From assembly GCA_030430075.1 (NCBI GenBank), contig JAUIGN010000007.1, positions 86,458 through 150,457 of the forward strand: a DNA stretch of 64,000 bases, read 5' to 3'. The translations under genes were made by a program, and so were the position numbers. Shown one piece after another: positions 22,171-63,000 of this stretch; the stretch's first letter is position 1; the number at the start of each line of letters is the position of its first letter. Under the pieces are notes generated by a model, which saw only the letters and a list, made by a program, of their open reading frames with translations, did no database searches and was not told where the DNA came from. Source of the DNA: a bacterium. GTDB taxonomy: Bacteria; Planctomycetota; Planctomycetia; Pirellulales; Pirellulaceae.

Positions 22171-23172
22171 TCACGATGTCTCACGGATGTGCACCCAGGT
22201 GTGGACGTGGGGTTTGCCGCGGAAATACCAGACCATGTTGGGACCTTCGACTTGCCAGACGTCCCAAACTTCATCCTCGCCGATGTTCTCGTCCTTGTAG
22301 AAGGAAAAATGAAGGTTGTCTAAACCGTTCTTCGTGATGTACTTCATCGACTCGCGGCGATCCGCTTCGCGGAACGGTGCGAGCAGATCCTCCAGAACCT
22401 GCTCGGCCAACTTTTTCTGGTCGGCCGACAATTCGGAGACCGGGATCCCGTCCAGGTCCCCGGGGTTGCCGCGTAATTCGACCGTCTTGTTACCCTGTTC
22501 GCCGCGCGAACGTCCCAGCAGGGCCAGCTTGCGTTGTTTGCCGTCCAGGGCTTGGAACAGTTCGTTTGCCCGCTTGGCCTGATACCAGTAGACATTGCCC
22601 TTGTGATCAGCCGACTCGTAAAAGTCTTCGGCGGCGTGTCCGTAAAAGATAGGCCCGCCGAACGCCGCGCCCTCGACGGAGTCGCCGTCGCACCGCCGGG
22701 TCACGTGGCGGCCCGTCAAGACAAATTCGAATTTGCCGCTGCCCGGTTCGCCGAACAAGGCGATCGAGCTCTTGTCGAAGCCACCGTCATGGTTCACCTG
22801 GCCCACCACCTTGTCGGCCCATTCGGGGCTATGGAGACCCCTGAAGATCTGCAGGATCAAATCCTGTTGGTCGGCATTGAAATCTCGGTCCAGTCGCGTC
22901 TTGGTGATGTGCCAGTTGTTGTTGATCGCCGACCGCAGGGCATGATCGAAGGGGAAACAGACCTGCTTCTTCTGTTTCTCGTTCAGTGACCCATGCAGCT
23001 GTTGTACCAGCGTTTCGGGCTCGGCCGGCGCCGCGTCCTTGGCGACTGCGGGGAGGCTGGTTACCAGACCGCTCGACGCCGCCAGGCCGACAGCCGTGGT
23101 CGACTTAAGGAACGCGCGCCGCGAAGGATGGTCCGCCACAATGTGCTGTTTGTTGTCGTGATGAGTGGACAT
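22171..23172 (-). CDS. Tat-secreted protein, DUF3500-like
   Basis: It has the Tat motif HPSRRAFLKSTTAVGLAASSG and a GGAGG SD 8 nt upstream of ATG 23172. The family call is tentative. Confidence 0.5.
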   Translation of the reverse strand: MSTHHDNKQHIVADHPSRRAFLKSTTAVGLAASSGLVTSLPAVAKDAAPAEPETLVQQLHGSLNEKQKKQVCFPFDHALRSAINNNWHITKTRLDRDFNADQQDLILQIFRGLHSPEWADKVVGQVNHDGGFDKSSIALFGEPGSGKFEFVLTGRHVTRRCDGDSVEGAAFGGPIFYGHAAEDFYESADHKGNVYWYQAKRANELFQALDGKQRKLALLGRSRGEQGNKTVELRGNPGDLDGIPVSELSADQKKLAEQVLEDLLAPFREADRRESMKYITKNGLDNLHFSFYKDENIGEDEVWDVWQVEGPNMVWYFRGKPHVHTWVHIRETS

Positions 23173-23180
23173 GCTGGAAG

Positions 23181-23185
23181 CCTCC
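23181..23185 (-). promoter_or_regulatory. Shine-Dalgarno sequence GGAGG for the 22171..23172 gene
   Basis: The + strand reads cctcc, 8 nt upstream of the start codon on the - strand. Confidence 0.5.
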
Positions 23186-23384
23186 GTGAGGGGTGGGTGC
23201 AATCAAGAACGGCGGTATTGCCGAGCGAGGACGACGGTCGTCGGGAAACTCCAGCGCCGCTCAACAGCCAAAAGGCCTCTGCGGTCGTCGACAAGACCGA
23301 GCGTTGCCGGGGTTCACCCCATGAATTAGAAACGAGCGGCGGCAAGGATGCAAATCCGGAGCGGGCGAGATGCCTGAGGCAGGC

Positions 23385-24737
23385 TTAGAGCTGCTTGAGG
23401 TATTCCAGCACGGCCGCTTTCTCGGCGGGCGTGAGCACTTCGGGGAACAGGTGGCCTTGGGCACTCTTGCCGAACTTTCTGGTGTCGAAATGAGCCCGCC
23501 GCGTCCAGACGTCCAGCCCGCGCGGCACGTCTGTCAGGGTTTCCACCTCCAGCCCGACACGTGCCTGGTCGAAACCGTCCCCACGAGTCCGCTTCCAGAC
23601 GGCAGGCCGTTCCGCAGGATGCAGCACGTGCCACAACGTGGGCACGCTGCCGTTGTGGAAATAAGGAGCTGATGCCCAGATGCCGTCGAGCGGTGGTGCG
23701 ACGTAGCCGGGCGGATCGACGAGGACACGATCTTTGCCATATCGGGAAAACCAGTTCTGCCGATAATCTTCGTGATGCTCGGCGGTCAAGGCATCGTCCC
23801 GTGCTCGATCGGTGCCGATTTCGGCGAGCGGAACATTGCGCTCCGGGTAGCTGGGCCGATCGCCGTACGTCCCATGACAGTCGGCACAGTGGCGGTTGAA
23901 GATGGCCGCACCTTGCCTCGCCAAACGCTCGTCGATGCCAAACGGGTAGGCGGGCGGTTCAAGTGATTCCAGATACGCGTAGATGTCGCGAAAATCATCT
24001 TCCCAGGTGTGGAATTTCTCAGGTCCGTTTTGCTGGTCCAAGGCGAACTGCATCAGCGGTCGATGGCCCTTCGATGCGAATCCTTCCAGGTAGAGTCGTT
24101 CCTTCTTCGAGAAATGCCACCAGGGCGGCGCGTCCATGTCATGGTGAACGAAGGGGCTCGACTGTTTGGACGGCACGACATTCAGGTCCTGGTCCCGATA
24201 GGCGGCCAGCGCGACACCAAAAATGACGGCGTTTGTCGTTCCGTGAGTCCCGCCCAGGGGCATGACCATCGCCCCATAATCGGTCGTCGAGAATGGCTTA
24301 CCCATTCTCAATTTGACGAGCCGCGATTCCTGGATTAGCGTCTGCAGCGCGTAATGGGAATTCGGCAAACCGGGGATGATCTGCCCAGCCACCGTCCCGC
24401 CGTGGCAGGTAAAGCAATTGGGCGTCCAGTTTCCCTGCCCATCGACGACGAACTGCAGCGGCTTGCCGGAATCATCGCCGGGCCGCGTCGTCAAGCCGTA
24501 GCGGGCAAACGCCATCTCACGTCGGCGGGCCGGCGAGGCCGCTTCCGCTTCCGCCCGGAGTTCGCTCGGCCACGTCGTCCAGAGGTTGTCGAACACCTCC
24601 TGGTCAAAGTACGCCGGGACATAGGGCGTCTCCAGCAGGTGCCGATACCCGCGTTCCGCGGCCGTTTCTTCCGCGATTGCCGCACCCGTCATCCACCAGG
24701 CGACGACCGCGAGCCATAGTAAGAAGCCACTTTTCAT
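23385..24737 (-). CDS. Secreted di-haem c-type cytochrome, possibly cytochrome-c peroxidase/MauG-like
   Basis: There are two CxxCH motifs (CFTCHGG, CADCHGTYGD) about 165 aa apart. The start is placed at MKSGFLLWLAVVAWWMTGAAIA, a signal peptide. Confidence 0.65.
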   Translation of the reverse strand: MKSGFLLWLAVVAWWMTGAAIAEETAAERGYRHLLETPYVPAYFDQEVFDNLWTTWPSELRAEAEAASPARRREMAFARYGLTTRPGDDSGKPLQFVVDGQGNWTPNCFTCHGGTVAGQIIPGLPNSHYALQTLIQESRLVKLRMGKPFSTTDYGAMVMPLGGTHGTTNAVIFGVALAAYRDQDLNVVPSKQSSPFVHHDMDAPPWWHFSKKERLYLEGFASKGHRPLMQFALDQQNGPEKFHTWEDDFRDIYAYLESLEPPAYPFGIDERLARQGAAIFNRHCADCHGTYGDRPSYPERNVPLAEIGTDRARDDALTAEHHEDYRQNWFSRYGKDRVLVDPPGYVAPPLDGIWASAPYFHNGSVPTLWHVLHPAERPAVWKRTRGDGFDQARVGLEVETLTDVPRGLDVWTRRAHFDTRKFGKSAQGHLFPEVLTPAEKAAVLEYLKQL

Positions 24738-25099
24738 CGCGCTCACCAGGTTGAACGTGTCGTTCTCCGTGCGAATCAAGTCCGGGCATCCCTTCCCGCC
24801 GGGGCGGCCCCAACGCCGACCTTGCTGTTGGCTTGCCGCAACGGCATCGAGCGATGTCCGCAAATGCTTCCTGGGTCGCGTGGAACGACCCATCTCGCGA
24901 GCCAAGCGGCCGGCAGACACGGCGCCTCATCGCCACCCCGTGTGACGCTAACCGCAGTCTAGGCGTGACCTTCACCAACGACAAGCGGCAGCCCGCAGAG
25001 GAACCGAGCTCGACGAGCCATCGTGCTTCATTGTTAACTTCCGTCGCAAGATGGTGGCTCGTGTACTCCACCGCGAGGCGGTAAGGCTTCTGGAAGCGG

Positions 25100-25532: not shown

Positions 25533-26585
25533 TCAATTCGGTTCCGGTTGATTGATGAAGTCGATCAACTGTCGCAACCGGCCATGGTTGCGGCGGTTGA
25601 AATGCAGGACCAGCCGTGGTTTGTGTGCCAGGTGCACTTCATCCTGTTCGGCATCGAGGGGCGTGGTTTGTTCGATTTTCCCCTCTGTCAGTATGTCCGA
25701 GAACCGGCCATTGAGTGCTGCCATCCGGTCGGCGGACAGGGGGCGGTGGATTCGCATCACCAGCTTGCGCTTGACGTATCGCATGCTGTGGTAGTTGGAA
25801 TAGAAGTGCGTGATCTCCCGGACGGCCGCTTCATGGGAATCCGTAATCTTGTACAGATGCAGGTCCTCGTCGGAAATCATCCCGCCGTGGAGCAATTGCT
25901 CGAGTACGAAGCGTTGAAAGGTCTGCCAGAAGGTGCCGCCTTTCGCGTCCAGCAGAACGACGGGGATCACGTTCTGTTTGCCTGTCTGCATCAGCGTTAG
26001 CACTTCCAAGGCCTCATCCAGTGTGCCGAATCCACCGGGCAGGCAGGCGACCGCATCGCATTCCTTGACGAACATCAGCTTGCGCGTGAAGAAGTACTTC
26101 ATGTGCACCAGCTTTTCGTCGCCGGCGATGATCGGGTTCGATTCCTGTTCGAACGGCAGCATGATGTTCAGCCCCATTGCGTGTTTGCGGCCCGATCCGC
26201 GGTGCCCGGCTTCCATGATGCCGCTGGCGGCGCCGGTGATGACCAGCCAATCTTCTTCCGCCATCGCTCGACCCAGCTTGACCGCCTGCGCATAGCTGGG
26301 AGCCGTATCGGGCGTTCGGGCCGATCCGAAAATGGTCACTTTCCGCCGTCGCCGATAGGGTGAAAAAACCTTGAAGGCATAACGCAACTCGCGGAGTGTC
26401 CGGCTGAGGATCTTCAAATCGCCGCGGGTTGTGCCGTCGGTGGACAGTTTGTCCACGTAGTTCTTGAGGGTCTGGATCAAGTCGGCCGAGTGGTGCGGTT
26501 TGTTACGCGTCGTACGATCGCCGGGTGTCGTGGCGGCGGATGTGAGGCCGGCGGGAGAAGGAGGGTGATTTGCTGATTCGGTCAT
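25533..26585 (-). CDS. LOG family (TIGR00730, SLOG superfamily) protein with N- and C-terminal extensions. It has a PpnN-like architecture.
   Basis: It contains KVTIFGSARTP...LVITGAASGIMEAGHRG...PGGFGTLDEALE. It also has ~100 aa before and ~80 aa after the LOG core. Confidence 0.75.
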   Translation of the reverse strand: MTESANHPPSPAGLTSAATTPGDRTTRNKPHHSADLIQTLKNYVDKLSTDGTTRGDLKILSRTLRELRYAFKVFSPYRRRRKVTIFGSARTPDTAPSYAQAVKLGRAMAEEDWLVITGAASGIMEAGHRGSGRKHAMGLNIMLPFEQESNPIIAGDEKLVHMKYFFTRKLMFVKECDAVACLPGGFGTLDEALEVLTLMQTGKQNVIPVVLLDAKGGTFWQTFQRFVLEQLLHGGMISDEDLHLYKITDSHEAAVREITHFYSNYHSMRYVKRKLVMRIHRPLSADRMAALNGRFSDILTEGKIEQTTPLDAEQDEVHLAHKPRLVLHFNRRNHGRLRQLIDFINQPEPN

Positions 26586-27014
26586 GGGGCACCTGTAACT
26601 GTCAATTGCGAGCCACTCTCGTGGTCGCCGAAGCGGGCGAACCATGCCGGATGCCGATGATGAGACGGGTGCACCCGATCCTTCGCCCTCGAATTATACG
26701 TTCCGAACGTGCCAGAGCCACATCCAAATAGGGAGCCTGCAACCCTCCGGTCCGCGCCGGCTGGCCGCTTTCGAAACATGCACGCATCCTGCGGGCATTT
26801 CACAAGAGAAGACGCTCACCGGGGTCGGGTATCGAACGTCCCCGAATCCGCACACGCGGCTCTGACCGTTGCAATCCACCTGACCGGAAAGAGCCGGCCA
26901 ATGCGAGCAGCGACCGGCGCGGTCCAAGGGAGTACCTGCCGGCGGTTGGGGAGAGCAGGCGGCGCATCGCGTCTGTCGCGCGGCTTGGCAAGGTCTCAAC
27001 GCAGCTGCACGGGC

Positions 27015-28028
27015 TCAGAGCAGCCGCACGCCGCACCCATTCACGTCCGCATAGTGACACCTGCCCTGGTCGATGGTAACGCCGGTGGCGATATCTCGGT
27101 CGAGCAACAACGGGCCGTCCATATCGACATAGTCGAGTAGCGGAAGCAGCTGAGCGATGGCCGACACGCCGACCGTCGACTCGGTCATGCAGCCGACCAT
27201 CACGCGCATCTCGAGTTCCCGGGCGCGAGCGATCATTCGGCGGGCCGGGGTCAGGCCGCCGCATTTGACGAGCTTGATATTGATGCCGTCGAAGTGCCCG
27301 GCACACCGATCGACGTCGGGCGGCACAATGCAGCTCTCGTCGGCGATAATGGGGAGCGCGGATTCGGCACGCACCTGTTGCATCTCGTCCCAGCGGTCTG
27401 CCGGCAACGGCTGCTCGATAAACTCCACCCCCAGTTCCTTGAGGGCCACCGAATTCCGAATGGTCTCGGCGGCATCCCAGCCGCAATTCGCGTCCACGCG
27501 AAACGTTGCCGCGGAATGTTTGCGCAGTTCGCGAACAATTTCCAGGTCGTGTTGGGTGCCCAACTTGATCTTGTAGATCGGCCAGTCCGGGAACTCGGCC
27601 ATCTTGGCCACCATGACGTCAATGTCGTCGATCCCGATGGTGTAGTTGGTGAGCGGCATGTTGTCCGCCCGGAGTCCCCACAATCGATAGACGGGTTGGC
27701 CTCGCAGCTTCCCCCACAGGTCGTGGGCCGCTTGATCCAGGGCGCAAAGGGCAAACGGGTTGTCTCCCAGCCGCTCGCTCATGACATCCCAGAACCGGGC
27801 AGGGTCGTCGATGGTTGTGGTTTCGATTTCGTCCCGGACGGCTTCCAGCGCGGCGGCCATGTTCTCGTACGTGAAGCCGTAGTAGCTGTTCGTCGTCGCC
27901 TCGCCGAAACCGGATTCGCCCTCCGCCTGCAGCTCGACGACCAACGTTGGCTGGACCGACGTCGCTTCGCGCGAAATTCGAAACACGTGCTTGAGGGGGA
28001 GATCGAAATGGTGGAGGAGCAATCTCAT
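27015..28028 (-). CDS. L-Ala-D/L-Glu (dipeptide) epimerase of the enolase superfamily
   Basis: The N-terminus MRLLLHHFDLPLKHVFRISREATSVQPTLVVEL and the KxK and metal-ligand pattern of MR/MLE-subgroup dipeptide epimerases are present. Its start overlaps the DUF1611 stop as ATGA. Confidence 0.75.
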   Translation of the reverse strand: MRLLLHHFDLPLKHVFRISREATSVQPTLVVELQAEGESGFGEATTNSYYGFTYENMAAALEAVRDEIETTTIDDPARFWDVMSERLGDNPFALCALDQAAHDLWGKLRGQPVYRLWGLRADNMPLTNYTIGIDDIDVMVAKMAEFPDWPIYKIKLGTQHDLEIVRELRKHSAATFRVDANCGWDAAETIRNSVALKELGVEFIEQPLPADRWDEMQQVRAESALPIIADESCIVPPDVDRCAGHFDGINIKLVKCGGLTPARRMIARARELEMRVMVGCMTESTVGVSAIAQLLPLLDYVDMDGPLLLDRDIATGVTIDQGRCHYADVNGCGVRLL

Positions 28029-29068
28029 GAGCACCACACCTTGCTCTCGCGAAAGTTGATCACGGCGTCCAGCAGATCCTGGGGACCATCGCGCACCACG
28101 TCGCAGACCGGCAATTCGAATTCGTCCTGCAGCCGTTTCCGCTCGGCCGCCGCTTCTGCGGCGGAGACACGACGGCTGTTGACGGCGATGCCGATCGTGC
28201 GGCACGGCTGATAGATGCTGGCCATCACTTCGTTCAGTTCACGGACTCTTGCCAGCGGCGGAATCTGGAGATGCTCCAGGCCAGTGATTGTTTCTCGTCC
28301 GAGCTCGCAGACGAGGATCAACGCCTGCGGGTAGGCGCCGTGGATCAGACCGAGTGTCACGGCGGAGTACGAGGGATGCACGAGGCTGCCCTGGCCCTCG
28401 ATCATCAGGATATCATGGTGTTGATGGGCGAGGATCATCTTTTCGACCGCCCCGCTGACGAAGTCGGCAATCACCCGATCGATCGGGCAGCCGTCCCCGG
28501 AAACCATGATCCCCGTCTGGCCGGTGGCGATAAAGTGGGCATCGTGTCCGGCGGCCTGCAGGCCCTTGGTGAGCTCGATCGATGTCAGCATCTTGCCGAC
28601 ACTGCAATCATGGCCCACGGTGAGGACACGCAGGCAATCGTCGCGAAGGCCCACTCGGCGCGCGATATCGCGTTCCTCGTTCTTGCGGACATCGGTGAGC
28701 GTCACTCCGTGCGCCTGGGCGGCCGTCCTGAACTCGTCGTCATCGGTGAGGAAGTCGTGCAGTCCGGCAGTCACGTCCATCCCGCTGGAGATTGCTTCCA
28801 GAATGACTTTCCGCCAATTGGGAGGGATGCTTCCGCCGGGAGGTGCGATCCCCAGCAGCAGGTGATCTGCGGTCGGAGCCTCGGACAGCGTGGCGACAAT
28901 TGGAATCTGACCACCCACCCCCAGCAGGTCCTGGCTGGTTTGACCCGCAACGGTGCTGTCCAGGAGGGCGACAACGTCGTCATCACCATAGCGAATCACG
29001 CTGCTGGCTGTCTTGGCCGTATGCGGGTTCGTAAAGCCTTCGGTCAAAATGATCGTTTTACGTTTCAT
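28025..29068 (-). CDS. DUF1611 domain protein
   Basis: It has the length and a Rossmann-like pattern, and it is immediately adjacent to the dipeptide epimerase, a very common pairing. The start is placed at MKRKTIILTEG. Confidence 0.6.
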   Translation of the reverse strand: MKRKTIILTEGFTNPHTAKTASSVIRYGDDDVVALLDSTVAGQTSQDLLGVGGQIPIVATLSEAPTADHLLLGIAPPGGSIPPNWRKVILEAISSGMDVTAGLHDFLTDDDEFRTAAQAHGVTLTDVRKNEERDIARRVGLRDDCLRVLTVGHDCSVGKMLTSIELTKGLQAAGHDAHFIATGQTGIMVSGDGCPIDRVIADFVSGAVEKMILAHQHHDILMIEGQGSLVHPSYSAVTLGLIHGAYPQALILVCELGRETITGLEHLQIPPLARVRELNEVMASIYQPCRTIGIAVNSRRVSAAEAAAERKRLQDEFELPVCDVVRDGPQDLLDAVINFRESKVWCS

Positions 29069-29076
29069 GATCGCTG

Positions 29077-30990
29077 CTACCGTAGGTTTTCCTCTGTGTA
29101 CAGCGACAGTTCGATCATTCGTTCCAATAGTTGCTCGGAACTGTAGCCGGGGAAATTGTGAATGACCAGTTCCTTCGAGTACAGTCGACAAACGTACCGC
29201 AGCTTGAGAGACTTCTGCCGCGTCGCGTAGACGAAGTCGCGGTGCCCCGAGTTGATCACAATCAGGTTTTGATCCGTGTCGTAGCGCGACCGCCATAACG
29301 CACCTGGTGCGTTCTCGAACGTGTAATCCGGCAGGCCGCGATCATGGTTCGACCTGGGGCGTTCGGGCAGCAACGAATCGGTGACCGTGACGATTCCCTC
29401 GGCCGTGCATTCCGTCGTTCCCTGGCGGACCGTGACGCTCAGTTGCACCAGTTCGGGTTCGCCGGAAGCGGTGTAGGTTACGCATTCACGGTCATAATGA
29501 TCCAGGGCGCCGCCGCCGCTGATGATGTTCCAGTCGAAGCTCAAATCGTCCTCGACAACACGCCGGGACCGATCGCGGGCAACGGCCCGCAGGTTACGTT
29601 CCTGCCGGACGGCAACGATCGAAGCCGTGGGGGAAATCCGCACGCTGTGCAACGGACCCGCGTGCTCAAAGAACGCTTTTTGCTGGGGTTCGGCCTGCTC
29701 GACCAGAGCGTCGTCGGCCGGCGACGCGTTCAAGGCCGCACCTGGCCGGCCTGTCCGCTTGGAAGCGGTCCCGTTGACGCCGTATACCTCGAACCAGTCA
29801 TATTCTTCCTCGGGCAGCGCCAAAACCGCTTCGCGAAATGCGCGCTGAATCGACTTCAGCGTGTCGCGGTTGACTTCTTCTTCCTTGGCCTGCTGCAATT
29901 CGGCGATGATCTCTTCCAGTCGACTTGCCAGCGGCACCAGTGCTTCGCGAAAAGTGGCAAACGCTTCATCCTGGATAACGCCCTGCCGGGTGCCGGGGGT
30001 GACGTTCAAGAACGGGGCGTCGATGACTCCCTGCAGGTACCCCGATGTCCAGGGCGATTGACGAAACTCGTCCAGGTCCGCCAGGTCTTCCAGAATTCGA
30101 GTCCCCGAACGGTACAGGCCGACGGCATGATCGGGCTGCGGTTCATCCACGTAGAGCTCGACGTACACCTCACCCAGCGGTGTTCCGGGCGACTTGAGTT
30201 TATCCAGGTGCCGACCGGAAAACGCTTGGGGCTGCACCACGTATTCCGCCCGCGCCTGGCGATCGAGAATGCGGATCTCGACATTCGAGTTGCGGATCCG
30301 ATCACGCAGCTCGGACGCCAGGTACCACTGCAGCTTCTCGCCGGTGAAGTGGCGAATCCCGGGAAGCAATGGGCTGACGGTCAACTGGGTTCCCTGATCG
30401 GCGACCAGGCGCCGGCGGCGAGTGACCCGATAGTTGGGATCCCCCTTGCGCATCCGCATTTCGTACGACTTCTGATCGGTACCGGTCGAGACCAGGCTCA
30501 ACTGTTCACCAACGGTCCAAAAGCTCAACAGCCCGATACCGAACTCGCCCTGCAGCCCGGTGGCGCCTTGCGACTTCAACTGCCGCTTGATCGAATCGCA
30601 GATGTGCGTGGCGACATACTTGAAGTCGGGAATCCCGTCCGCGTTGGTCGGCAGCCCATCGCCGTCATCGATGATACGCAAATACGAGTTCCCCTTCTCG
30701 CGCCCGCGAATGATGGTGATGTGCTGGGCGTGCGCGTCGATACTGTTTTCCACGAATTCGGCGACGGCCTTCAGCGGATTCGACTGCGAGAGGGCGATGA
30801 TGCTGATCGCATTCCAATGATCGCCGATCCGCAGTTTTCCGGAAGTCGGGCGACCCGTCTCCTTCGCTGGTCCTGACCGCTGCGGCCCTTTATCTTGCTT
30901 CTGCGCTGACGGCTTGGCTTGCTTCATCACTCGATTCGCTGGGGTTTTCGGCGTGGCATCATCCGGGATGGCGATTGGGAAGCCACCCAT
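29077..30990 (-). CDS. GHKL-superfamily ATPase of the MORC/HtpG/MutL type (HATPase_c_3-like), with a ~450-aa uncharacterised C-terminal region
   Basis: The Bergerat-fold motifs are an N-box (VAEFVENSIDAHA), a D/G1 box (IIDDGDGLP) and a G2 box (LQGEFGIGLLSFWTV). No HisKA H-box is present. It lies 8 bp upstream of the DUF1611 gene. The start is 30990 (MGGFP); 30927 (MKQAKP) is an alternative. Confidence 0.65.
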   Translation of the reverse strand: MGGFPIAIPDDATPKTPANRVMKQAKPSAQKQDKGPQRSGPAKETGRPTSGKLRIGDHWNAISIIALSQSNPLKAVAEFVENSIDAHAQHITIIRGREKGNSYLRIIDDGDGLPTNADGIPDFKYVATHICDSIKRQLKSQGATGLQGEFGIGLLSFWTVGEQLSLVSTGTDQKSYEMRMRKGDPNYRVTRRRRLVADQGTQLTVSPLLPGIRHFTGEKLQWYLASELRDRIRNSNVEIRILDRQARAEYVVQPQAFSGRHLDKLKSPGTPLGEVYVELYVDEPQPDHAVGLYRSGTRILEDLADLDEFRQSPWTSGYLQGVIDAPFLNVTPGTRQGVIQDEAFATFREALVPLASRLEEIIAELQQAKEEEVNRDTLKSIQRAFREAVLALPEEEYDWFEVYGVNGTASKRTGRPGAALNASPADDALVEQAEPQQKAFFEHAGPLHSVRISPTASIVAVRQERNLRAVARDRSRRVVEDDLSFDWNIISGGGALDHYDRECVTYTASGEPELVQLSVTVRQGTTECTAEGIVTVTDSLLPERPRSNHDRGLPDYTFENAPGALWRSRYDTDQNLIVINSGHRDFVYATRQKSLKLRYVCRLYSKELVIHNFPGYSSEQLLERMIELSLYTEENLR

Positions 30991-38919: not shown

Positions 38920-40854
38920 ATGAATTCGGAATTGCTTAACTGGCTCTCCATACCCCTCGTGGCGTCGCTCGGCTACGAGCACGTGCCGTGGTGGGGAAAC
39001 GGGCTCTTGGCACTCTGGCTATGGGCCTTGGGAGCCAATCTGGGAAGCTTCATGAACGTGGTTGTTTACCGGGTTCCGCTGGGGCGAAGCGTTGTCCACC
39101 CGGGTTCACGCTGCCCCGGCTGCAGCCATGCGATCCAGTGGTACGACAACATTCCCGTTCTGAGCTGGACGCTGCTGCGAGCCCGCTGTCGCTATTGCAA
39201 GGTGACCATCTCTTCCCGTTACCCGTGCGTCGAGGCGCTGGTGGCGACCGTTGTTCTGGTGGTTGGGTTTCTGGGGCCGGTTTCCCTGGGGCGCAACCTT
39301 CCGCACGCGTTGCACCCTGCCGAGTTCCAATACCAGACGGCGTGGCTCTGGCTGCTGTTCGCCTATCACGTGCTGCTGCTATGCACCCTGATTTGTGCCG
39401 CCCTGATCCGTTATGACGACCAACCGACGCCCTTGCGGCTCTACCTCCCGGCACTGCTTGTCGGCTTCCTGGCGCCCATGTTGCCGCCGATGGAGATGCT
39501 CGGCAGCTTTCGTCCGGTTGCCTTTGCCGGCCTGCCGGAATTGTCCGCACGAGCGGTGGCGATCTGGGATGGCGTGACAGGACTGGCGGTCGCTGCGGCG
39601 CTTGGCTTGTTCGCATCCCTGGCGGCCAGGGATATCCGTCGTTCCACGCTGCTGTCGTTATGCGAGTTGCCGGCAGTGATGAGCGTCGGCCTGTTCCTTG
39701 GCTGGCAGGCGGCCTGCGCACTCGCTTGCTATGCGGCCGCGGCCCATTTGCTGACGGCCATCGTTACCCAAGGCACGGCCTGGGCTCGCCGCATCCCATG
39801 GCTGGCCCACCTGACCTGTGGATGCCTGTTGTTGATCCTCCTCTGGCGCCCGCTTGTCGAGCGTGCCCCGTGGCTGGGCGAGGGTGCGACCATTGCCACA
39901 TTCGGCCTGGCCGCCGGCGTCGTCGCCGCGTGTACCTACTTGACTTCGCTGATCCGTGATGAAGCGGCGGAAGAGACTTTGCCTGAACCAACGGAAAGTG
40001 TGCCCATGACCCCGGATGAAAAACTGGCAGCCATCTTGAGTTCACCCAGCTATCGGCTGGCGGAACTGGATACCGAGTTCCTGCAACGCGATGAACTTCG
40101 CCCGGTGAGGATGCAGTTGGAGCTGCTCAAGCCCGAGATGGCATTGGAGGAACAAAACATCAACTCCACGATCGTGGTCTTTGGCGGCACGCAGGTCGTC
40201 GAGCCGGCCGCGGCGGAGGCGCGACTGGCTGCAGCGCGGCAGGAACTGGCCGCAGACCCGGACGATCCGGCTCGGCAGCGAGCCGTTTCACGTGCTGAAC
40301 GAATCCTGGCCAAGGCGGGGAGCTATGACGCGGCACGCGAGTTCGGGAAACTGGTCTCTGCTTCCTGCCAGGTCGATCAACGTTGCCACTATGTGATCAC
40401 GACCGGCGGCGGACCAGGCATCATGGAGGCCGCCAATCGGGGCGCGCACGACGCCGGTGCGAAGTCGATTGGCTTGAACATTACCCTGCCCCACGAACAA
40501 ACGCCGAATCCATACATCACGCCCGCCCTCTGCTTCCAGTTTCACTACTTCGCGCTGCGCAAATTGCACTTCCTGTTCCGCGCGCGGGCGCTCGTGGTCT
40601 TTCCCGGAGGCTTCGGGACGCTTGACGAATTGTTCGACGCGTTGACGTTGCGGCAGACCGGGCGGATGCAGGCAATTCCCATCATCCTCTACGGTCGTGA
40701 GTATTGGAACCGCGTGATCGACTTCGAATTCCTGGCTGATGAGGGCGTCATCGCCGATGAGCACCTCGATTTGATCAGCTATGCCGAAACACCCGCGGAA
40801 GCCTGGTCGCAGATTCAAGCGTTCCATGAGGAGACGGCGGCCGTAGATCGCTAA
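38920..40854 (+). CDS. Fusion protein with an N-terminal prepilin-peptidase-like (A24) membrane domain and a C-terminal LOG/SLOG (TIGR00730) domain
   Basis: The N-terminus LGSFMNVVVYRVP...SRCPGCSHAIQWYDNIPVLSWTLLRARCRYCKVTIS is the zinc-ribbon N-domain of type IV prepilin peptidases. It has multiple TM helices. The C-terminus YVITTGGGPGIMEAANRG...PGGFGTLDELFDAL is a LOG core. The reading frame is continuous. Confidence 0.7.
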   Translation: MNSELLNWLSIPLVASLGYEHVPWWGNGLLALWLWALGANLGSFMNVVVYRVPLGRSVVHPGSRCPGCSHAIQWYDNIPVLSWTLLRARCRYCKVTISSRYPCVEALVATVVLVVGFLGPVSLGRNLPHALHPAEFQYQTAWLWLLFAYHVLLLCTLICAALIRYDDQPTPLRLYLPALLVGFLAPMLPPMEMLGSFRPVAFAGLPELSARAVAIWDGVTGLAVAAALGLFASLAARDIRRSTLLSLCELPAVMSVGLFLGWQAACALACYAAAAHLLTAIVTQGTAWARRIPWLAHLTCGCLLLILLWRPLVERAPWLGEGATIATFGLAAGVVAACTYLTSLIRDEAAEETLPEPTESVPMTPDEKLAAILSSPSYRLAELDTEFLQRDELRPVRMQLELLKPEMALEEQNINSTIVVFGGTQVVEPAAAEARLAAARQELAADPDDPARQRAVSRAERILAKAGSYDAAREFGKLVSASCQVDQRCHYVITTGGGPGIMEAANRGAHDAGAKSIGLNITLPHEQTPNPYITPALCFQFHYFALRKLHFLFRARALVVFPGGFGTLDELFDALTLRQTGRMQAIPIILYGREYWNRVIDFEFLADEGVIADEHLDLISYAETPAEAWSQIQAFHEETAAVDR

Positions 40855-54006: not shown

Positions 54007-57000
54007 TCAATCGACAAAGAACTCCGCAAAAATCGCATCCATGGCGGCCTTGGCGAGCGGCGTGGCTTTCTCCGCTGCCAGGATGTCCGTGACCAGATCA
54101 TCTTCGACCTCGTCGCCCGGCTCCCGCACGTCGTCCATCTGCAGAATGGCAACGTCTGCGAACGCGGCATTGCCCGGCGTCGGACGTGTTGGCGTTTCGC
54201 CGCAGTCTTCCACAGCGGTCCGACCGACGACTGCAGTATCCTCGGCGGCCTGCAGGTCCGCCAGCAGGCGGCCTCGGTGATCCGCGGTCAGATCGCGGCC
54301 TGCCACCGCCCCGAAGGCGCCACGGTTCGCTTCGCCTTCTCCCTCGATGGCGGCGGCGTTCAGTCGATTAATGACCCGTAGTGCGTCGTGGGCCGAAAGG
54401 GCCCGATCACCGTTCGTATCGTAGAAGAACGAATCGGCGCCTGCATCCGCTGAAACTCCGGTCAGTGATTGCGAGCGGTTCAGCGCGTTGATGACCAGCA
54501 GGGCATCCATCGGCTCGACAACGCCGTTGCCGTTGACATCGGCTGGGTCCGCAAGGTTGTGACGTGGACTCACACTGGACGTGTCCTGAAACTCGGCGGG
54601 GGAAGCCCCGCTGGAGACCGTGATGGGCACCGAAAACTCGGACGTATTTCCCAGGGCGTCCGTCGCGGTCGCCACGATCTGGTCGCCAGCCTCGACCGCG
54701 GCACTGGCAAGCGATACGCTCTTGAGCTTGTTTTCCGTGTCGAGTGTATACAGATCGCTGCCGAGATGGCTGCGTCCTTCCCGGCCCGACGGGTCGGCGG
54801 CGTAGAAGTCAATCGTCAACTCGTATGCCGAGTGAGCTTGCAAGGAGGGAACTTCGTAGACAAATTCCAGCGTTCCTTGCAGACGCGCTTCACGCAGAAC
54901 GGGGAAATTCTGCAATTCGTTGGGACCGTCGTCCATGTCCTGGTTGTTCGCGACCGCGTCGTTGGCGGTCGTGCCGTCGGCATTCAAATCGATCGACAAG
55001 CCAGCATTCGAGAACATCGTGTTCCCTTGAATCCGATTCCCGTGGGCCGTGGATCCGGTGACTGTGACTCCCGACCGCGCGTGATGGGCGATGACATTTG
55101 CGGCGCCCTTGCTGGTACCGCCAATCAGCGTGTCGCTCGCCTGATCGACCCAGACACCCCACTGGCCATTGGGCAGCGGCGACGTCTCGTCGGACTGGGT
55201 CCCGATCAGGTTCCCCAACACACGATTACTGCTGGCAGACGCGCCTGCGACTCGCACACCGCCGTAGTCATTGCCGGAGATTAGATTTCCTTCTTCGAAT
55301 CCGGCTCCGCCGACCGAATTCTTGGGGGCGCTGATGTAGACGCCGGTACTGGTGTTGCCCAGGTCAAGCGTGCTCGAATGATCTGTGCCAATGATGTTCC
55401 CCAAAATTCTGTTTTCCGAGGCGGTCGGGCCGGTGATCGCCACACCAAACAGACCGTTGTCGGAGATGACGTTCCCCGCGCCTGGGAAATCGCCACCGAT
55501 CGTATTCGCATTGGCGTTGCTGATCGCCACACCACTCTTGGCGTTCCCCAGGTCTTCGTTGTCCTTGGGGCGTGTGCCCTGGTCATCGGTGCCGATGAGA
55601 TTTCCTTGGACCGTATTGGCCGTGGTATTGGCGCCGACCAGCAGCACGCCGTCGGCACCGTTGGCCGAGATCACATTGCCCGCCGTCCTGGACTGACCGC
55701 CGATCGTGTTTTCACGGGCGCCTGCGCCGATGCGAACGCCCGAGCCGGCGTTGCCCAGCGGATGACTGCCGTTCATGCCGAGCCCGATGAGATTGCCCTC
55801 AATCCGGTTGCCTTGGGCGCCGGCCCCTGCCACGACGACGCCATGATTCCCATTGGCCGAGATGACATTGGTCGCACCGCGCGTGGTGCCGCCGATAATC
55901 GTGTTCTGGGCGTTGGCCAACTGCAGGCCGGAGTCGACGTTCGGCAACGGGGCCGTCCCCGTGATGTCGGTGCCGATGTAGTTGCCCTGCACGACATTGC
56001 CGCTCGCCAGAAAGGAAGCGATCCGGACACCAAACGACGCGTTGCCTGAAATCACGTTGCGCTGGCCGGCCGTCAGGCCGCCGATCCGATTGCCGGGCGC
56101 TTTCCAGATCAAGACGCCGGTATTTCCATTGCCAACCGCAGCGGTGCCGGTCACGTCGGTTCCGATCAGGTTACTCGTCACCACGTTGCCGGTCGACGTC
56201 TCGTCGAGAATGGCGAGGCCTGTGGCGACGTTGCCTGAAATGACATTGCCGGCAGCCGCATCCATGCCACCCACGGTGTTATTCGACGCCTCGCGAATGA
56301 CCAGGCCGAACGAGCCATTGCCGACGGCGGTCGTGCCGGTCGCGTCCGTGCCGATGAAGTTTCCGACGACCTGATTCCCGCTGGCCAGTGGACCCGAAAT
56401 GAAGATGCCGCTCTTGCGGTTGCCCGAGACCACGTTCCCAGCGCCGTCGTCGGTGCCGCCCAACGTGTTGTGCGGTGCGTTGAAGAGATTGATCCCTGTC
56501 TGACGATTGGACAAGGCAGTCGATCCGCTCACATCGAGCCCCACCAGGTTGCCCTGGATCACATTGCCGTTCGCCGTCGCGCCTGTCACAAAGATCCCGC
56601 CAATGGTGTTGCCTGAGATGACGTTTCCTCCGCCAACCGCGCCGATCGTGTTGCCCGCCGCGCCATCGATCGAGATGCCGTTGGCTCCGTTTCCTCGTGC
56701 GAGGAGGCCCGTTGCATCGGTGCCGATCAGGTTGCCGACGATGGAGTTGCCCGTCGTTCCGGCACCGACGAGGGTCACACCGCCCGCTGCATTGGCGGAG
56801 ATGACGTTGCCGGAGCCGATCGTGTTCTCGCTGGCGTCCTGGTCGATGCGAACTCCAACGCCGGTGTTGCCCCGACGCGTCGTCCCATCCGGGCCGAGGC
56901 CGATCACGTTGCCCTGGATGACGTTCCCCGCCGATCCGGAACGCGATACGTAGATACCGTGGCCACCATTGCCGGAGATCACGTTCGCAGCGTCGGCCGA

Positions 57001-60000
57001 CGGCCCGCCAATCACGTTGCCGTACGATGCATGGACGAGGATACCGTGCGACCCGTTGCCCAGGCCGGCAGCGCCCGTTGGGTCGGTTCCGATGATGTTC
57101 TTCTGAATCGTGTGTTCACCACCCAGTCCCAGCAAGATTCCGCTGCCGCCGAAGCTGTGGATTGCCAGACCTCGCACGGTGCTACGTCTACCCGACAGCA
57201 GTGCCAAGCCAGTCGCTTGGTCACCAGCGTTGGCTCCATCGATCACGACAACAGACGCGCCGTCCTCGTCGGAAGCTGTCGTACCGTCGATCATGACCGC
57301 GTCCCGAATCAACGGCAGTTGCGACAAGGGTGAAATCGTGTGCGGCCCTGGATCCGCGAAATCAAAGACAATGACGTCCGCGCCATGCGGAGAATTTGGC
57401 AACGCGTTGGCTTCTTCGATGGCAGCTCGCAAGGTCGTTCGGCCATTCGCGTCTTCGGCCACGCCGTCGCCTGGGTTGACATCGCCGCCGTCGCCTGTTG
57501 AATCCACGACGAAGCCGTTCACGCGGATGTCGACTTGGAATGCCATTCTCCCGACTGCTCCGTCCTCATCGTGGACTTCCACGGTGAGCGTTACCGAACC
57601 AGGCGAAACGCCTTTCGAGGAAAGAGCGATCGCGCGACTGGTTCCTTCGCCGACCACCGCCAGGTTAGCGTCCGGGACAATCGATTGGTCGCTGCTCCGG
57701 ACAGAGACAACCAGGTCGTCGGCATCCGTCTCAAAGTCGCCGATTTGAAACTCCCATGAACCCGCCGACCAATCGATGATGACCTGATCGTCGATTTCGC
57801 TGGCCCAAGGAACCAGGTTTAATCGATCGGCGGGACGGGCCAGAATGACTTCGCGTTGATTTCCTTCATGAACGTGGGTAATTACTAACCGGTCGTCGCC
57901 CAGAGCGGTCACCGTCACATTGGCGGTTGGCGGAATCAGGTGGTGCTGCAGTAGTTGGAGTTCGAAGGCCCCCATGTCAACCGCGGTTCCGTGCCGTTCG
58001 TATCCGCGCTGGTCCGTGTCGGGCGCGTTGAAGACTTCATTGTCCTCCGCGTCGAGCACAACTTGCGTGCCGGCGTCAATGGCTGGACTGCCGGGAAGCA
58101 ATGCTCGGGTCGGCACGGGACCGCCGTTCGCTTGCAGCGGGCCGAGTTGCGGGTCAATGGTCGCTCCGGACACGCCGATCAGGTTGCCGTTGGCGTCCGG
58201 TGAACCCACGGGAGCGCCGACCAGTGACGAACCTGTGGCGTCACCGATCAAGGTGTGGTCGAGCACGGTCTCTAGCGAGAACGAATCGATGTCGGGCGCC
58301 CGATCGCCGGCCTCATTCAACGCCACGATGGAATTGTAAATGGTGGTCGGCGCGTTGGTGACCGAAAGCCCGCCCCCATCATTCCCTGCCTCGTTGTCCG
58401 CGATCGTTGCGTGGCGAAGGTCGGCGGTCGAATTCTGGACGTAAATTCCTCCCCCACTTCCAGACGCGCGATTGCCGGTGACGGTACTGTTGGTGACGTT
58501 CAGCTCAGAGCTGCCGTAGACTGAGATAGCGCCACCGTTCGAGAATGAGCTTCCTGAAGTGGTATTCCCGGAGAACGTCGAATTCACGATCCTGAGGCGG
58601 CTCGCTTCGCGGGCGTAGAGGGCCCCACCACCGGAAGAAAAGCCCGTCGCGGCATTACCCCTGGCAAGTACGGAATCCAAGGTGACGAGTCCAGCCGACT
58701 CGACATAGATCGCACCACCCCCACCCGGGAAACCGCCAGTCGTCGTGCGGCCGTTCTGCAATGTCAAATTGGAAATCGTCACGTCGTGGTTGGTCGCCGT
58801 TTCAGATCCGTCACTGAAGATTTTGAAGATGCGCGAGTCCTGTTGGGCATCGATGATCGTGTTGTGGGCTCCTCGACCGGCAATCGTGACAGCGTCGTTA
58901 ATCTGGAGTTCACCATCGGTCAGCGTGATGGGGAGGCCGTTGAGACTGCCGTCGAACGTGATCAGATCCGCGCCCGGTAGTTGATTCGCGTGCGTGACGG
59001 CGTTGCGCAGGGTTCCCACCGAAAAACCGTCCTCGGTGGTAAACACTTCCAGGAACGCCTGTTCAACGGCACCGATATCCGGTGTCATTCCCAACACACG
59101 CGGAGTCCCCAGTTGATCCGTCGTCAAGTTGCCCAAGAGCCCCGTGAGATCTGAATTCGCAGCATCCACAGCCACGCTGGTGGCAAGGAGGCCAAAATGT
59201 GGCAGGTTTGCTTCCGTCGCCAGGCTGGTCAGACCCGCGTCGACATCCAGAAGGTCGCTGGGCTGAAACTGGCTGCTTGCATCCGCACCGGCCGAATCAA
59301 CGAGCAAGTTGTGGCCATTGGAAACCACAAACCCGCTCAGGGAATCCGCCATGATCGTGTTTTGCAGTTCCAGGACATCACCCTGGACGTCGTCCATATA
59401 CACTCCGGCCGCCGCTGACGACGCATGATTTCCAGAGATCGTCACGTGAATTAACGCGACGCCTCCGAAGGTGCTGCGGTTCGTGATTGCCCCACCATTG
59501 CTCGCCGTGTTCTCGGTAAAGGTGGTATTGATGGCTCGGAGAAGGCCCCCCTGACCGTTGTTTCGAATGGCGCCACCCGAGCCCGACGCGGAATTGCCGG
59601 TGAAAGCAGTGTTAATCACGTTCACTGTCTTGAACACGCCGTTGTTATCGATCGCGCCGCCGTTGGCTGCACGACCGCCAGTGACGTGGCTGTTTTTGAC
59701 GGTCAAGTCGCCCACCGTACGGATGGCCCCGCCGCCGCCCAGCACCTCGCCGCCCATCAGCGTGACGCCATCCAGTACGAATTCAGCGTTTGCCGAGCGA
59801 ACATCGAAGGCGCGGTCACCCAGTGAGCTGGCGTCGATGATTGTCTTGCCTGCTCCGGCTCCCACAATCGAGATGTCGGCATGAATATCGAGGTCGCCGG
59901 TCTGCGAATGGTTCTCCATCGCGCCAGTGGCTGCCAGCTTGAACGTGCCTTCGCCCAGGACGATTCTGTGCGAACCACCGAGTCGATTCGCGTCGAGGAT

Positions 60001-63000
60001 GGCTCGGCGCAGGCTGCGCTGATTGATGTCATCTTCGTGAGTATTGACGAAGAGAATGTTGTTTTCGACCGCGCCGATGTCGTCGCCCGTTCCGATGTCG
60101 CGGGGTACTCCGCGCTGGTCATTGGAGTGCGACGACGCGCCGGTATCCATCAGCGGGCTTGACCGATGTGGTAAGTGGGTGCGCGTCGGTCCGCCATTGT
60201 CCGCCAGCGGGCCCAGCAGTGGATTCAGCACGTTGTCGGAGATATCGATCTGCTGGCCGGCGCCGGGAGAATCTCTGTTGACTTTGCCGTAGCGGTCGCT
60301 GTTCGCATCGAATCCGGCGTCCGTCGCCGCCACACCGATGAAGTTGTGCCCCTGACTCTGAAACACCCCGGCGACATCGTTGACTTCAAATTCATCCGCG
60401 TCGAGCTCATCAGCCGTGCCGGCTTCCGCATTGTTGGCGGCCACCACCGTGTTTCGCAATCCAACGATACCGGTGTCGTCGTTGTAGATTCCGCCGGTGA
60501 GGCCGGAGCCCGGTTCCGCGAATGTCTGCTCACCCGTCACGGTGATCCCTGCTTCGCCTCCCTTGGCCGCGTTGTTGAAGACCGTGTTGGAATTGAGCTG
60601 GATGCTACCCCCGCGATTGAAGATGGCACCACCGATGCCGGCTCCACCGCCACCGGGACCACCAACTTCTGCGTTGATTCCATCGGCTCCGCTGCCACCT
60701 TGGTCGCCTGCCGCACCTCCTAGACCGATAGGTCCTGGCTTGATGCAAAGGCAGTCAAGATCTTCGTAAACCTTGATGCCCGCGCTCGCGCCACCACCGC
60801 CGCCGCCGAATCCTCCATCCGCCCCGTCTTTCGCCGTAAGCTTGGGGTCGAGGATCAGATCTCTGTCACCAGACGCGCCACCACCACCTCCGCCAAATCC
60901 ACCTTCGTCACCGCTCTCAAACTCCGTCGCAAGACCAAGGGGCATGATGACCTCACCACCCTCTCCACCGCCAATTCCACCACCATTTCCTCCAGGATTC
61001 GCTGAAAGATCGAGCAACGGTTGAATGAGCTTGACATTGCTTGTATTTCCACCCCGCCCGCCCACCGCTTCGTTCGTGGAGAGCGTGCTGCTGATCACCC
61101 CCAGAACGCCCTCGTTGTAGACTCCGCCGCCCAGGCCGGCGCCTCCACCTCCGCCGCCAGCGCCATTGACGCCAATCGCGCCGTCGGAGCCCCGAGCCAC
61201 ATTGTTGGCCAGCAGGCTACCTTCGAGTGTCGCGCCGCCGAGATTGGCGATGGCCCCGCCCCACTGTGACTGATTGCCCTCGAACGTGCTGTCGGTCACC
61301 ACGGAGATGGCCCCTTCCGCGACGAACATGCCGCCACCTAACCTTCCGGCCCGATTACCGACCAGTCGCGTACGTGTCAGCAGGAGTTGGCCGGCATTGA
61401 GGATTCCACCACCATTTTCGGGAGTCATCCCGCCGCTAATGATCACGTCCGTCAGGTTGAGCGTCGCGTCGGCATGAACTTCGATGGCCCGGTCGTCCAA
61501 TCGCGAGGCATCGATGATCGAAGGCTCACCCGTTGTCGAGCCATTGATCGTGATCGCCTGCGACTTGACGTCCAGGTCTCGGTTGTTGGCTGAAGTGCTG
61601 GTGAGGAAATGCGTGCCCGGACCCAGCGTAATCGAATTGGTGCCGCCCTGAGCATTGAATAAACTCACCGCCTGCTGCAGCGTCAGGGAGCTACCATGAT
61701 TGTCCGGTGAGACCACCAACGTCTCAGCCACGAATTGCGTGGCACCGATGTCACGCGGACCGGGAATTTGAAAACCCCGTTGATCCTGATTCTGCGATCC
61801 GGCACCAATGGCCGGGCTGTCGGCATGCAAGACGTGCGTCTGTGTTGCCCCGCCGTTGTTCGCGAGTTCACGCAACCGCGGGTCGATCGGGTTGGCCGGT
61901 GTTCCATGAAGCGTGGATGATTGCCAGCCCGTCGTGACCGAGGTGGCACCGATCAGGTTGTACCCATCGTCCGTCAGGTCGTTACGATCCGCTAAGACCA
62001 GGTCTACGCCTTGGTTGTCCGCCACGATCGAGTTGTCCAGATGCACCGTTCCATCCGCGACGAAAATGCCGCCGTCGGAGAGTGTTGATTCGTTGTCTGT
62101 GATCGTGCTGGCAGTGATGGTGATCGATGCATTGTGATGACCAACATAAATGGCACCCCCTTCGTCATGAGCACCGTTTCCGGAGATCGTACTGCGAAGC
62201 AAGGCAACGGTGCCGGCACCTCCAACTGCAATCCCGCCGCCGGGCGGGCTGACCCTGGGGTCGGACTGGATTGCGGTGTTGCCACTGATGGTTGAATCGG
62301 TGACTTCGAATCGACTTTGCGTGACATAGAGTCCACCACCTTTCGAAGGCGGGCCTGTCGCCCGGACTTGGTTGTTGTGGACCGTCGTCCGAGTCGTGGA
62401 GCCGCCGCCCGATGCCCACACGCCTCCGCCCTGTGCGGCAGAGACGTTTCCCGTCACCTCGACGTCGATCAGGTCAAGCCTGCCCTTGGCGAAGATGCCG
62501 CCACCGTTCCCAGTCAACTCCATTCCGTTCTGAATCGTCAATCCTTCCAGCGTCAGGTGCGCACCATCATGGACCTCGAAGATGCGGCTGAGTTGCCCGG
62601 CATCAATGACCGTTTTCCCCACGCCCTGACCGATGATATGCAGGTCCCGATCGGTAATATCCAGATCGGCCGAATTGTCGTTTTCCGCGGTGGCGTCAGA
62701 CAGTCGATAGATGCCATCGTCCAGTTGAATGAAATTGGTTTCACGTGACGACGCGCCCCCTTCCAGGTCGTCTTTCGCATTCGCTTGGGCGATGGCGTTT
62801 CGCAAGCTGCGTCCGGATTCTCCCCGGGTATCCACGGTCAGATCGAACTCGAAACCTTCCCCAATCACGAACGGGTCCAAGGCGACAGTCTCGTTGATAA
62901 TGGGGAACGCGACGTTAACCAGGTCGACGGATGCCAACTCCGTGCTCAGAAACTGGGACTCGGGGATATGCACGATTGGGCCTGCATTGAATGGCAATTG

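Follow-up and report, generated by a model that had tools for sequence, protein, structure and literature searches.

A GHKL ATPase gene and a DgcN/DgcA-like gene pair as probable lineage-specific neighbors in a planctomycete genome

We analyzed a 64,000-nucleotide (nt) stretch of planctomycete DNA (GCA_030430075.1, contig JAUIGN010000007.1, positions 86,458-150,457 of the forward strand), hereafter called the window, to whose positions all coordinates below refer, with a focus on three consecutive genes encoding a GHKL ATPase, a DUF1611 protein, and a racemase/epimerase. The three genes and the junction between the first two are as follows, with protein lengths given in amino acids (aa).

29077..30990, minus strand: GHKL ATPase gene, 637 aa, recognized by its open reading frame (ORF) and translation, an independent gene call, the HATPase_c_3 match, and full-length homologs of 55-85% identity
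29069..29076, minus strand: spacer of 8 nt (cagcgatc) between the GHKL stop codon TAG and the DUF1611 start codon ATG, read from the sequence
28025..29068, minus strand: DUF1611 gene, DgcN-like, putative D-glutamate N-acetyltransferase of 347 aa, recognized by Pfam, NCBIfam, the Protein Data Bank (PDB), and the name of an orthologue at JGI
27015..28028, minus strand: racemase/epimerase gene of the enolase superfamily (MLE subgroup), 337 aa, recognized by Pfam MR_MLE_N/C, NCBIfam, PDB, and its conserved pairing with DUF1611

The original prediction, made from the letters of the DNA, had claimed three consecutive genes, the first two 8 nt apart and the last two overlapping in an ATGA, and our reading of the sequence and the independent gene call both agreed with this arrangement. 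The GHKL stop codon TAG occupies 29079-29077 and the DUF1611 gene starts with the ATG at 29068, while the DUF1611 stop codon TGA and the epimerase ATG overlap in the ATGA at 28028-28025; in a public assembly with identical DNA, the independently called products were likewise of 637, 347, and 337 aa. The start codon of the GHKL gene is uncertain, and since the homologs are approximately 607 aa long, the ATG at 30927 (616 aa) fits better than that at 30990; the residue numbers used herein nevertheless follow the 637-aa numbering. Judged from this layout, transcription of the trio as one unit within its narrow clade is plausible. When the locus was scanned for promoters and terminators, the results were no better than chance.

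The conservation of this arrangement was assessed by tblastn of all neighbors in the window against the best 80 genome loci of at least 461 relatives of the GHKL protein (59 of the other 79 loci having at least 2.5 kb of downstream sequence), and by de novo clustering of all flanking ORFs in the 80 genome loci and, separately, in 80 metagenome loci representing a divergent subfamily. DUF1611 and epimerase genes were found beside the GHKL gene in just one of the 80 genome loci, L001, which was the closest of those 80 with 80% identity and also has the flotillin, LOG, DUF3500, and cytochrome genes. A further relative, L081 (83% identity), was collinear throughout from Peptidase_M17 to HemDE, and in L174 the whole region, beyond the trio alone, was collinear as well. 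The junction of TAG, 8 nt, and ATG occurred likewise in L001 and L081, the junction being kept in three relatives. In the window itself, the trio lies between a Band_7/flotillin gene upstream and a LOG-like gene downstream, with DUF3500, RoxA-like cytochrome, HemD-HemE, Peptidase_M17, and UbiD genes nearby, and these surroundings consist of ordinary planctomycete housekeeping genes in a region of uniform GC content. Adjacency of the GHKL gene to DUF1611/epimerase is thus limited to relatives whose identity is 80% or higher and lies inside a collinear region; because L001 and L081 are collinear well past the trio, the adjacency is attributable to shared ancestry of the whole region.

At greater distances the association was gone. 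The GHKL homologs at 70% and 66% identity had unrelated genes and no DUF1611/epimerase alongside, and four homologs from other phyla had unrelated housekeeping neighbors, among them ATP synthase, ribonucleotide reductase, aminotransferases, and oxidoreductases, again with no DUF1611/epimerase. Sizeable intergenic gaps surrounded the GHKL gene in all six of these homologs, and the Pfam-annotated neighbors of seven GHKL homologs were housekeeping genes. No neighbor family emerged in more than 7 of the 80 genome loci upon de novo clustering of the flanking ORFs; in the divergent subfamily, DUF1611/epimerase was present in none of the 80 metagenome loci and the commonest neighbor family in 6 of them. 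When the loci were centered on DUF1611 instead, the orthologs in other planctomycetes (69-73% identity; L084, L086, and L088) kept an overlapping or adjacent MR_MLE gene and had no GHKL gene, the upstream position being taken by a divergent SDR epimerase, an ORF without an assigned function, or an ABC transporter 20 bp away.

The original prediction had suggested that the ATPase could be an ATP-dependent modulator of the DUF1611 and epimerase enzymes, and had set neighborhood conservation beforehand as the test that could refute it. On this reading, the ATPase would act as a modulator or chaperone within a functional three-gene system. The 8-nt spacing and the ATGA overlap, which suggest a single transcript, and the junction kept in three relatives are in line with such a system. 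However, the association was confined to relatives of at least 80% identity in a fully collinear region and was absent at 70% and 66% identity, in 79 of the 80 genome loci, in all 80 metagenome loci, and in the DUF1611-centered loci; the GHKL family is much more conserved and widespread than the association, and elsewhere DUF1611 pairs also lie within 20 bp of unrelated genes. With the GHKL gene found elsewhere in relatives and the synteny lacking, the proposed coupling did not hold up, and we regard a functional three-gene system as highly improbable. The reading that we prefer, to which we assign a probability of roughly 0.7, is that two unrelated functional units, a stand-alone GHKL ATPase and a DgcN/DgcA-type pair, became neighbors in one narrow Pirellulaceae-like lineage, where they are probably carried on one transcript.

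As for the pair, the DUF1611 protein matched Pfam DUF1611_N (95.9 bits) and DUF1611 (231.4 bits), and its best NCBIfam model was DgcN (NF041892; 283 bits, 2.5e-84, equivalog cut-off 480), to which residues 61-335 aligned at model positions 51-325 of 326. The closest solved structures were PDB 2OBN and 7XRJ (E-value ~1e-58), and an orthologue with 71% identity is listed at JGI as a D-glutamate N-acetyltransferase. The epimerase, which matched Pfam MR_MLE_N and MR_MLE_C, was best described by the NCBIfam model DgcA (NF042940; 226 bits, 5.8e-67, equivalog cut-off 400), and reached the cut-off of neither L-Ala-D/L-Glu epimerase model (NF011708, 131.7 bits against 343; NF041118, 116 bits against 500). 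Its closest solved structure was 3IJI (E-value 3e-67), which we take to be a Bacteroides thetaiotaomicron dipeptide epimerase.

The pair had been described in the original prediction as being of unknown integrated function; its top NCBIfam models, DgcN and DgcA, instead belong to a described route. In the DgcN-DgcA route, treated as an established pathway, D-glutamate (D-Glu) is converted to L-glutamate (PMC10845958, PMC12363236). The pair resembles this pathway in its top models and in the tight pairing of DUF1611 with an MLE-type gene kept in planctomycetes, and differs from it in that the equivalog cut-offs were missed and no deacetylase gene was seen beside the pair here. On these family assignments, the pair is putatively a salvage module for D-glutamate or peptides, of a kind already known, and would most likely bring D-glutamate, or a D-Glu compound close to it, into the L-form via an N-acetyl intermediate in the DgcN/DgcA manner. 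As a separate observation on one of the DUF1611-centered loci, the DUF1611 and MR_MLE genes of L088 (5001-10366), which are the ones placed 20 bp after an ABC transporter gene, are followed on the same strand by genes for a MatE transporter and a gamma-glutamyltranspeptidase, a layout that fits glutamyl-compound metabolism.

For the GHKL protein, a single Pfam family was found, HATPase_c_3 (E-value 7e-11, 42.7 bits against a cut-off of 25, aa 74-176), and no Pfam model matched the approximately 460 residues past residue 176, in line with the claim that the C-terminal region is unrecognized; this region was nonetheless very strongly conserved despite the absent Pfam coverage. The full-length AlphaFold2 (AF2) model was of moderate quality, with a predicted local distance difference test score (pLDDT) of 66.7 and a predicted template modeling score (pTM) of 0.41, and gave the order Bergerat domain, second alpha/beta domain, 50-residue helix, disordered linker, beta-sandwich, and helical end. 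When the last 205 residues were modeled separately on a 43-sequence alignment, the model was confident (pLDDT 91.3) and two parts were resolved. The resulting features are the following.

30346..30783, minus strand: Bergerat-fold ATP-binding domain, aa ~70-215, with N box E78/N82, G1 D108-G110-G112, lid S133/K135, G2 G148/G153, and T201
30001..30345, minus strand: predicted transducer-like second alpha/beta domain, aa ~216-330, followed by an invariant PGTRxG loop (R335)
29818..29967, minus strand: single long helix in the AF2 model, aa 342-391, a possible coiled-coil dimerization element
29665..29805, minus strand: variable, low-complexity linker predicted to be disordered, aa ~396-442, with pLDDT <50 and a length and sequence that vary in alignments
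29371..29658, minus strand: predicted Big_2-type Ig-like beta-sandwich domain, aa ~445-540
29080..29334, minus strand: small C-terminal alpha/beta domain of three strands and three helices, aa ~553-637

The Bergerat boxes occur in order as the N box E78/N82/D85 (ExxxNxxD), G1 D108-G110-G112 (DxGxG), and G2 G148-x-x-G151-x-G153 (GxxGxG), and the protein has the alpha/beta sandwich of the Bergerat fold. Throughout 39 sequences down to 28% identity, the Bergerat E, N, D, G, and G residues together with G148 and G153 were invariant, and G151 of the G2 box was replaced by A in some members. Further invariant residues of the family were Q69 in the N box, S133 and K135 in the lid, R335 in the PGTRxG loop, and N580, H583, and Y599 in the C-terminal domain, while W566, R567, S568, R569, D585, and K606 were kept in at least 90% of the family sequences. 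The family-wide motifs of the C-terminal domain, which is covered by no Pfam family, were WRSR, N-x-x-H-x-D-[FY], LRY, and AKE, and the whole architecture was retained in members down to approximately 28% identity. A His-Me/HNH nuclease reading of WRSR...NxxHxD was considered and not adopted, since the first strand of the hairpin does not end in His and structural comparison gave no HNH match.

These properties confirmed that N, G1, and G2 boxes are present and invariant with no HisKA domain, and the MORC/HtpG-type structural class that had been proposed was right, the structural neighbors being the Hsp90, MutL, MORC, and topoisomerase ATPases. They also bear on whether the protein could be an ordinary sensor histidine kinase with a degenerate HisKA domain, as a weak HATPase_c match (E-value 0.0014, below the cut-off) might suggest. 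The ATPase domain is N-terminal with just ~50-70 residues of polar tail ahead of it, no HisKA domain or H-box, transmembrane or sensor domain, response-regulator neighbor, or dimerization/phosphoacceptor helix pair was found, and the structural neighbors named above are of other kinds; a kinase of this sort is therefore scarcely credible.

The protein was also compared with the known GHKL systems. Relative to the Hsp90 family (HtpG, TRAP1, GRP94), the scores were 16.4 bits against a cut-off of 371 for HtpG (NF003555) and 36.7 against 455 for PRK14083, with no match to Pfam HSP90, while 205 residues aligned with the N and M domains of TRAP1. Unlike Hsp90, the protein continues after the ATPase domain with a shorter second domain, the long helix, the disordered linker, the Big_2 domain, and an unrelated small C-terminal domain; unlike the Hsp90 setting, moreover, no heat-shock operator or promoter motif was enriched upstream of the family genes, nor was any SOS operator; CIRCE, sigma-32-like, HAIR, and LexA boxes, sought in 65 upstream regions, did not exceed shuffled controls. 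The protein also differed from MutL, whose model TIGR00585 scored 35.5 bits against a cut-off of 180 over residues 71-115 only, and no Pfam match was found to the C-terminal dimerization/endonuclease domain MutL_C.

The prokaryotic MORC and paraMORC proteins deserve closer comparison, as a link to DNA-level conflict had been raised in the original prediction. In MORC and paraMORC proteins, the GHKL domain is joined to an S5-fold domain that contributes a conserved basic residue. Their genes keep company with SF2 helicase, endonuclease, or restriction-modification genes in conserved neighborhoods (Iyer, Abhiman and Aravind 2008, PMC2292703). The GHKL protein might be a paraMORC-like conflict or defense protein acting alone, with the C-terminal domain (WRSR, NxxHxD) as nuclease or effector. 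Its layout, in which a GHKL domain is followed by a second domain and a conserved C-terminal extension containing invariant polar residues, is like that of the paraMORC families; paraMORC3 includes some members encoded by stand-alone genes (PMC2292703), the GHKL family is sporadic over distant phyla, and many of its members carry a short basic N-terminal tail. In contrast, some 170 loci showed no restriction-modification, helicase, or nuclease neighbors, PADLOC-DB 2.0 gave 0 families at E-values up to 0.1 for all three proteins of the trio, the NCBIfam model MzaB scored only 13.4 bits, and no matches were found in plasmids, phages, or IMG/VR. No recognizable nuclease or TIR domain was present, and the C-terminal domain yielded no nuclease fold; conservation over phyla was much higher than in MORC/paraMORC, the identity of 55-60% being unusually high for a conflict gene. 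The conflict link was thus unsupported by gene context or PADLOC, and we consider a defense protein of this type unlikely.

The GHKL family is broad. More than 4,800 homologous proteins were found, the top 120 sharing no less than 59% identity along their full length; a scan with one genome per species gave at least 461 relatives across at least 8 phyla, and an exhaustive hidden Markov model search gave 560 clusters at 50% identity (E-value <1e-30). The best 80 genome relatives belonged to Planctomycetota, Acidobacteriota, Gamma- and Betaproteobacteria, Verrucomicrobiota, Nitrospirota, Desulfobacterota, Lentisphaerota, Omnitrophota, and Binatota, and the carriers are soil, sediment, and freshwater bacteria. 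Identity between phyla amounted to 55-63% over the whole length, and such a plateau over very different phyla suggests that the family is under very strong constraint, has spread horizontally, or both. No relatives of the protein were found in IMG/VR, the PLSDB plasmids, or the INPHARED phages, and PHROGs gave weak matches only, to the GHKL domain. All but one of the best 80 genome matches (L001-L080) were metagenome-assembled genomes. For divergent members no name was found in the sources searched, and the family is uncharacterized, with a distinctive architecture of Big_2 and a new C-terminal domain. It is rather doubtful that these proteins of approximately 600 aa constitute previously undescribed, widespread, autonomous bacterial ATPase machines with a role distinct from HtpG chaperoning, mismatch repair, and known defense.

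Given that the ATP-binding and catalytic residues are intact, that the second domain has an invariant arginine loop, and that a long helix follows, we infer that the GHKL protein most likely works autonomously as a dimeric clamp driven by ATP. As a stand-alone ATPase, it would act like other proteins that combine GHKL and transducer domains (Hsp90, MutL, MORC): a constitutive dimer, probably held together via the long helix and/or the C-terminal domain, would close its N-terminal domains into a clamp upon ATP binding, hydrolysis would be helped by the basic residue R335 of the second domain as a candidate basic finger for the gamma-phosphate, and the Big_2 Ig-like and conserved C-terminal domains would hold a client or supply an effector site. 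Since Hsp90 is the nearest match in structure and in lid sequence and the gene lies in housekeeping surroundings, we lean slightly, and tentatively, to a protein client in the Hsp90 manner; a nucleic acid held in a paraMORC/MutL-like clamp is almost as probable a client. A short Ser/Thr/Lys/Arg-rich N-terminal tail was found in many members, not all, with a mean net charge of approximately +2.7 over ~16 residues, and is too weak a feature to point to either type of client.

Several points weigh against the preferred reading of a stand-alone ATPase beside a DgcN/DgcA-type pair. The scores of both pair members lie under the curated equivalog cut-offs (283 against 480 for DgcN and 226 against 400 for DgcA), and the epimerase substrate could be a D-Glu dipeptide, given that its best solved relative is the dipeptide epimerase 3IJI. 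The 8-nt gap and the conserved junction make co-transcription likely, and with it a lineage-specific functional recruitment of the ATPase is possible. On the side of the GHKL protein, the full-length model is mediocre, the proposed clamp mechanism is read from fold and motifs, and the second domain has a putative S5 fold.

The proposed three-component system, if true, would link the metabolism of D-amino acids or peptidoglycan peptides to an ATP-driven machine. On this evidence the trio is best read as a chance, lineage-specific juxtaposition in an ordinary operon, so that the three-component lead can be dropped; DgcN/DgcA-like is a suitable annotation for the pair. The GHKL family keeps a modest interest, having thousands of strongly conserved yet nameless members in at least 8 phyla with no clue from genomic context; orphan ATPases of such a type are candidate carriers of new functions in housekeeping or stress, and no specific new biology is indicated yet.

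Some further features of the window were noted. The LOG-like gene (Lysine_decarbox / SLOG cluster4; 25533-26645, minus strand) lies 369 bp downstream of the epimerase gene on the same strand, a position kept in L001 and L081. Beyond it, the minus-strand region 22171-24920 contains a gene for a RoxA-like di-haem cytochrome c (23385-24920) adjoining that for a DUF3500 protein (22171-23202), and L081 lacks the cytochrome gene between LOG and DUF3500. A giant ORF of 3286 aa (54007-63867, minus strand) gave a single Pfam match, to a dockerin type I domain at aa 3109-3170, close to the C-terminus. Finally, an ORF of 644 aa on the plus strand (38920-40854) combines an N-terminal prepilin-peptidase A24 domain (aa 37-115) with a C-terminal LOG-type domain (Lysine_decarbox/SLOG, aa 489-631), which is an unusual fusion.

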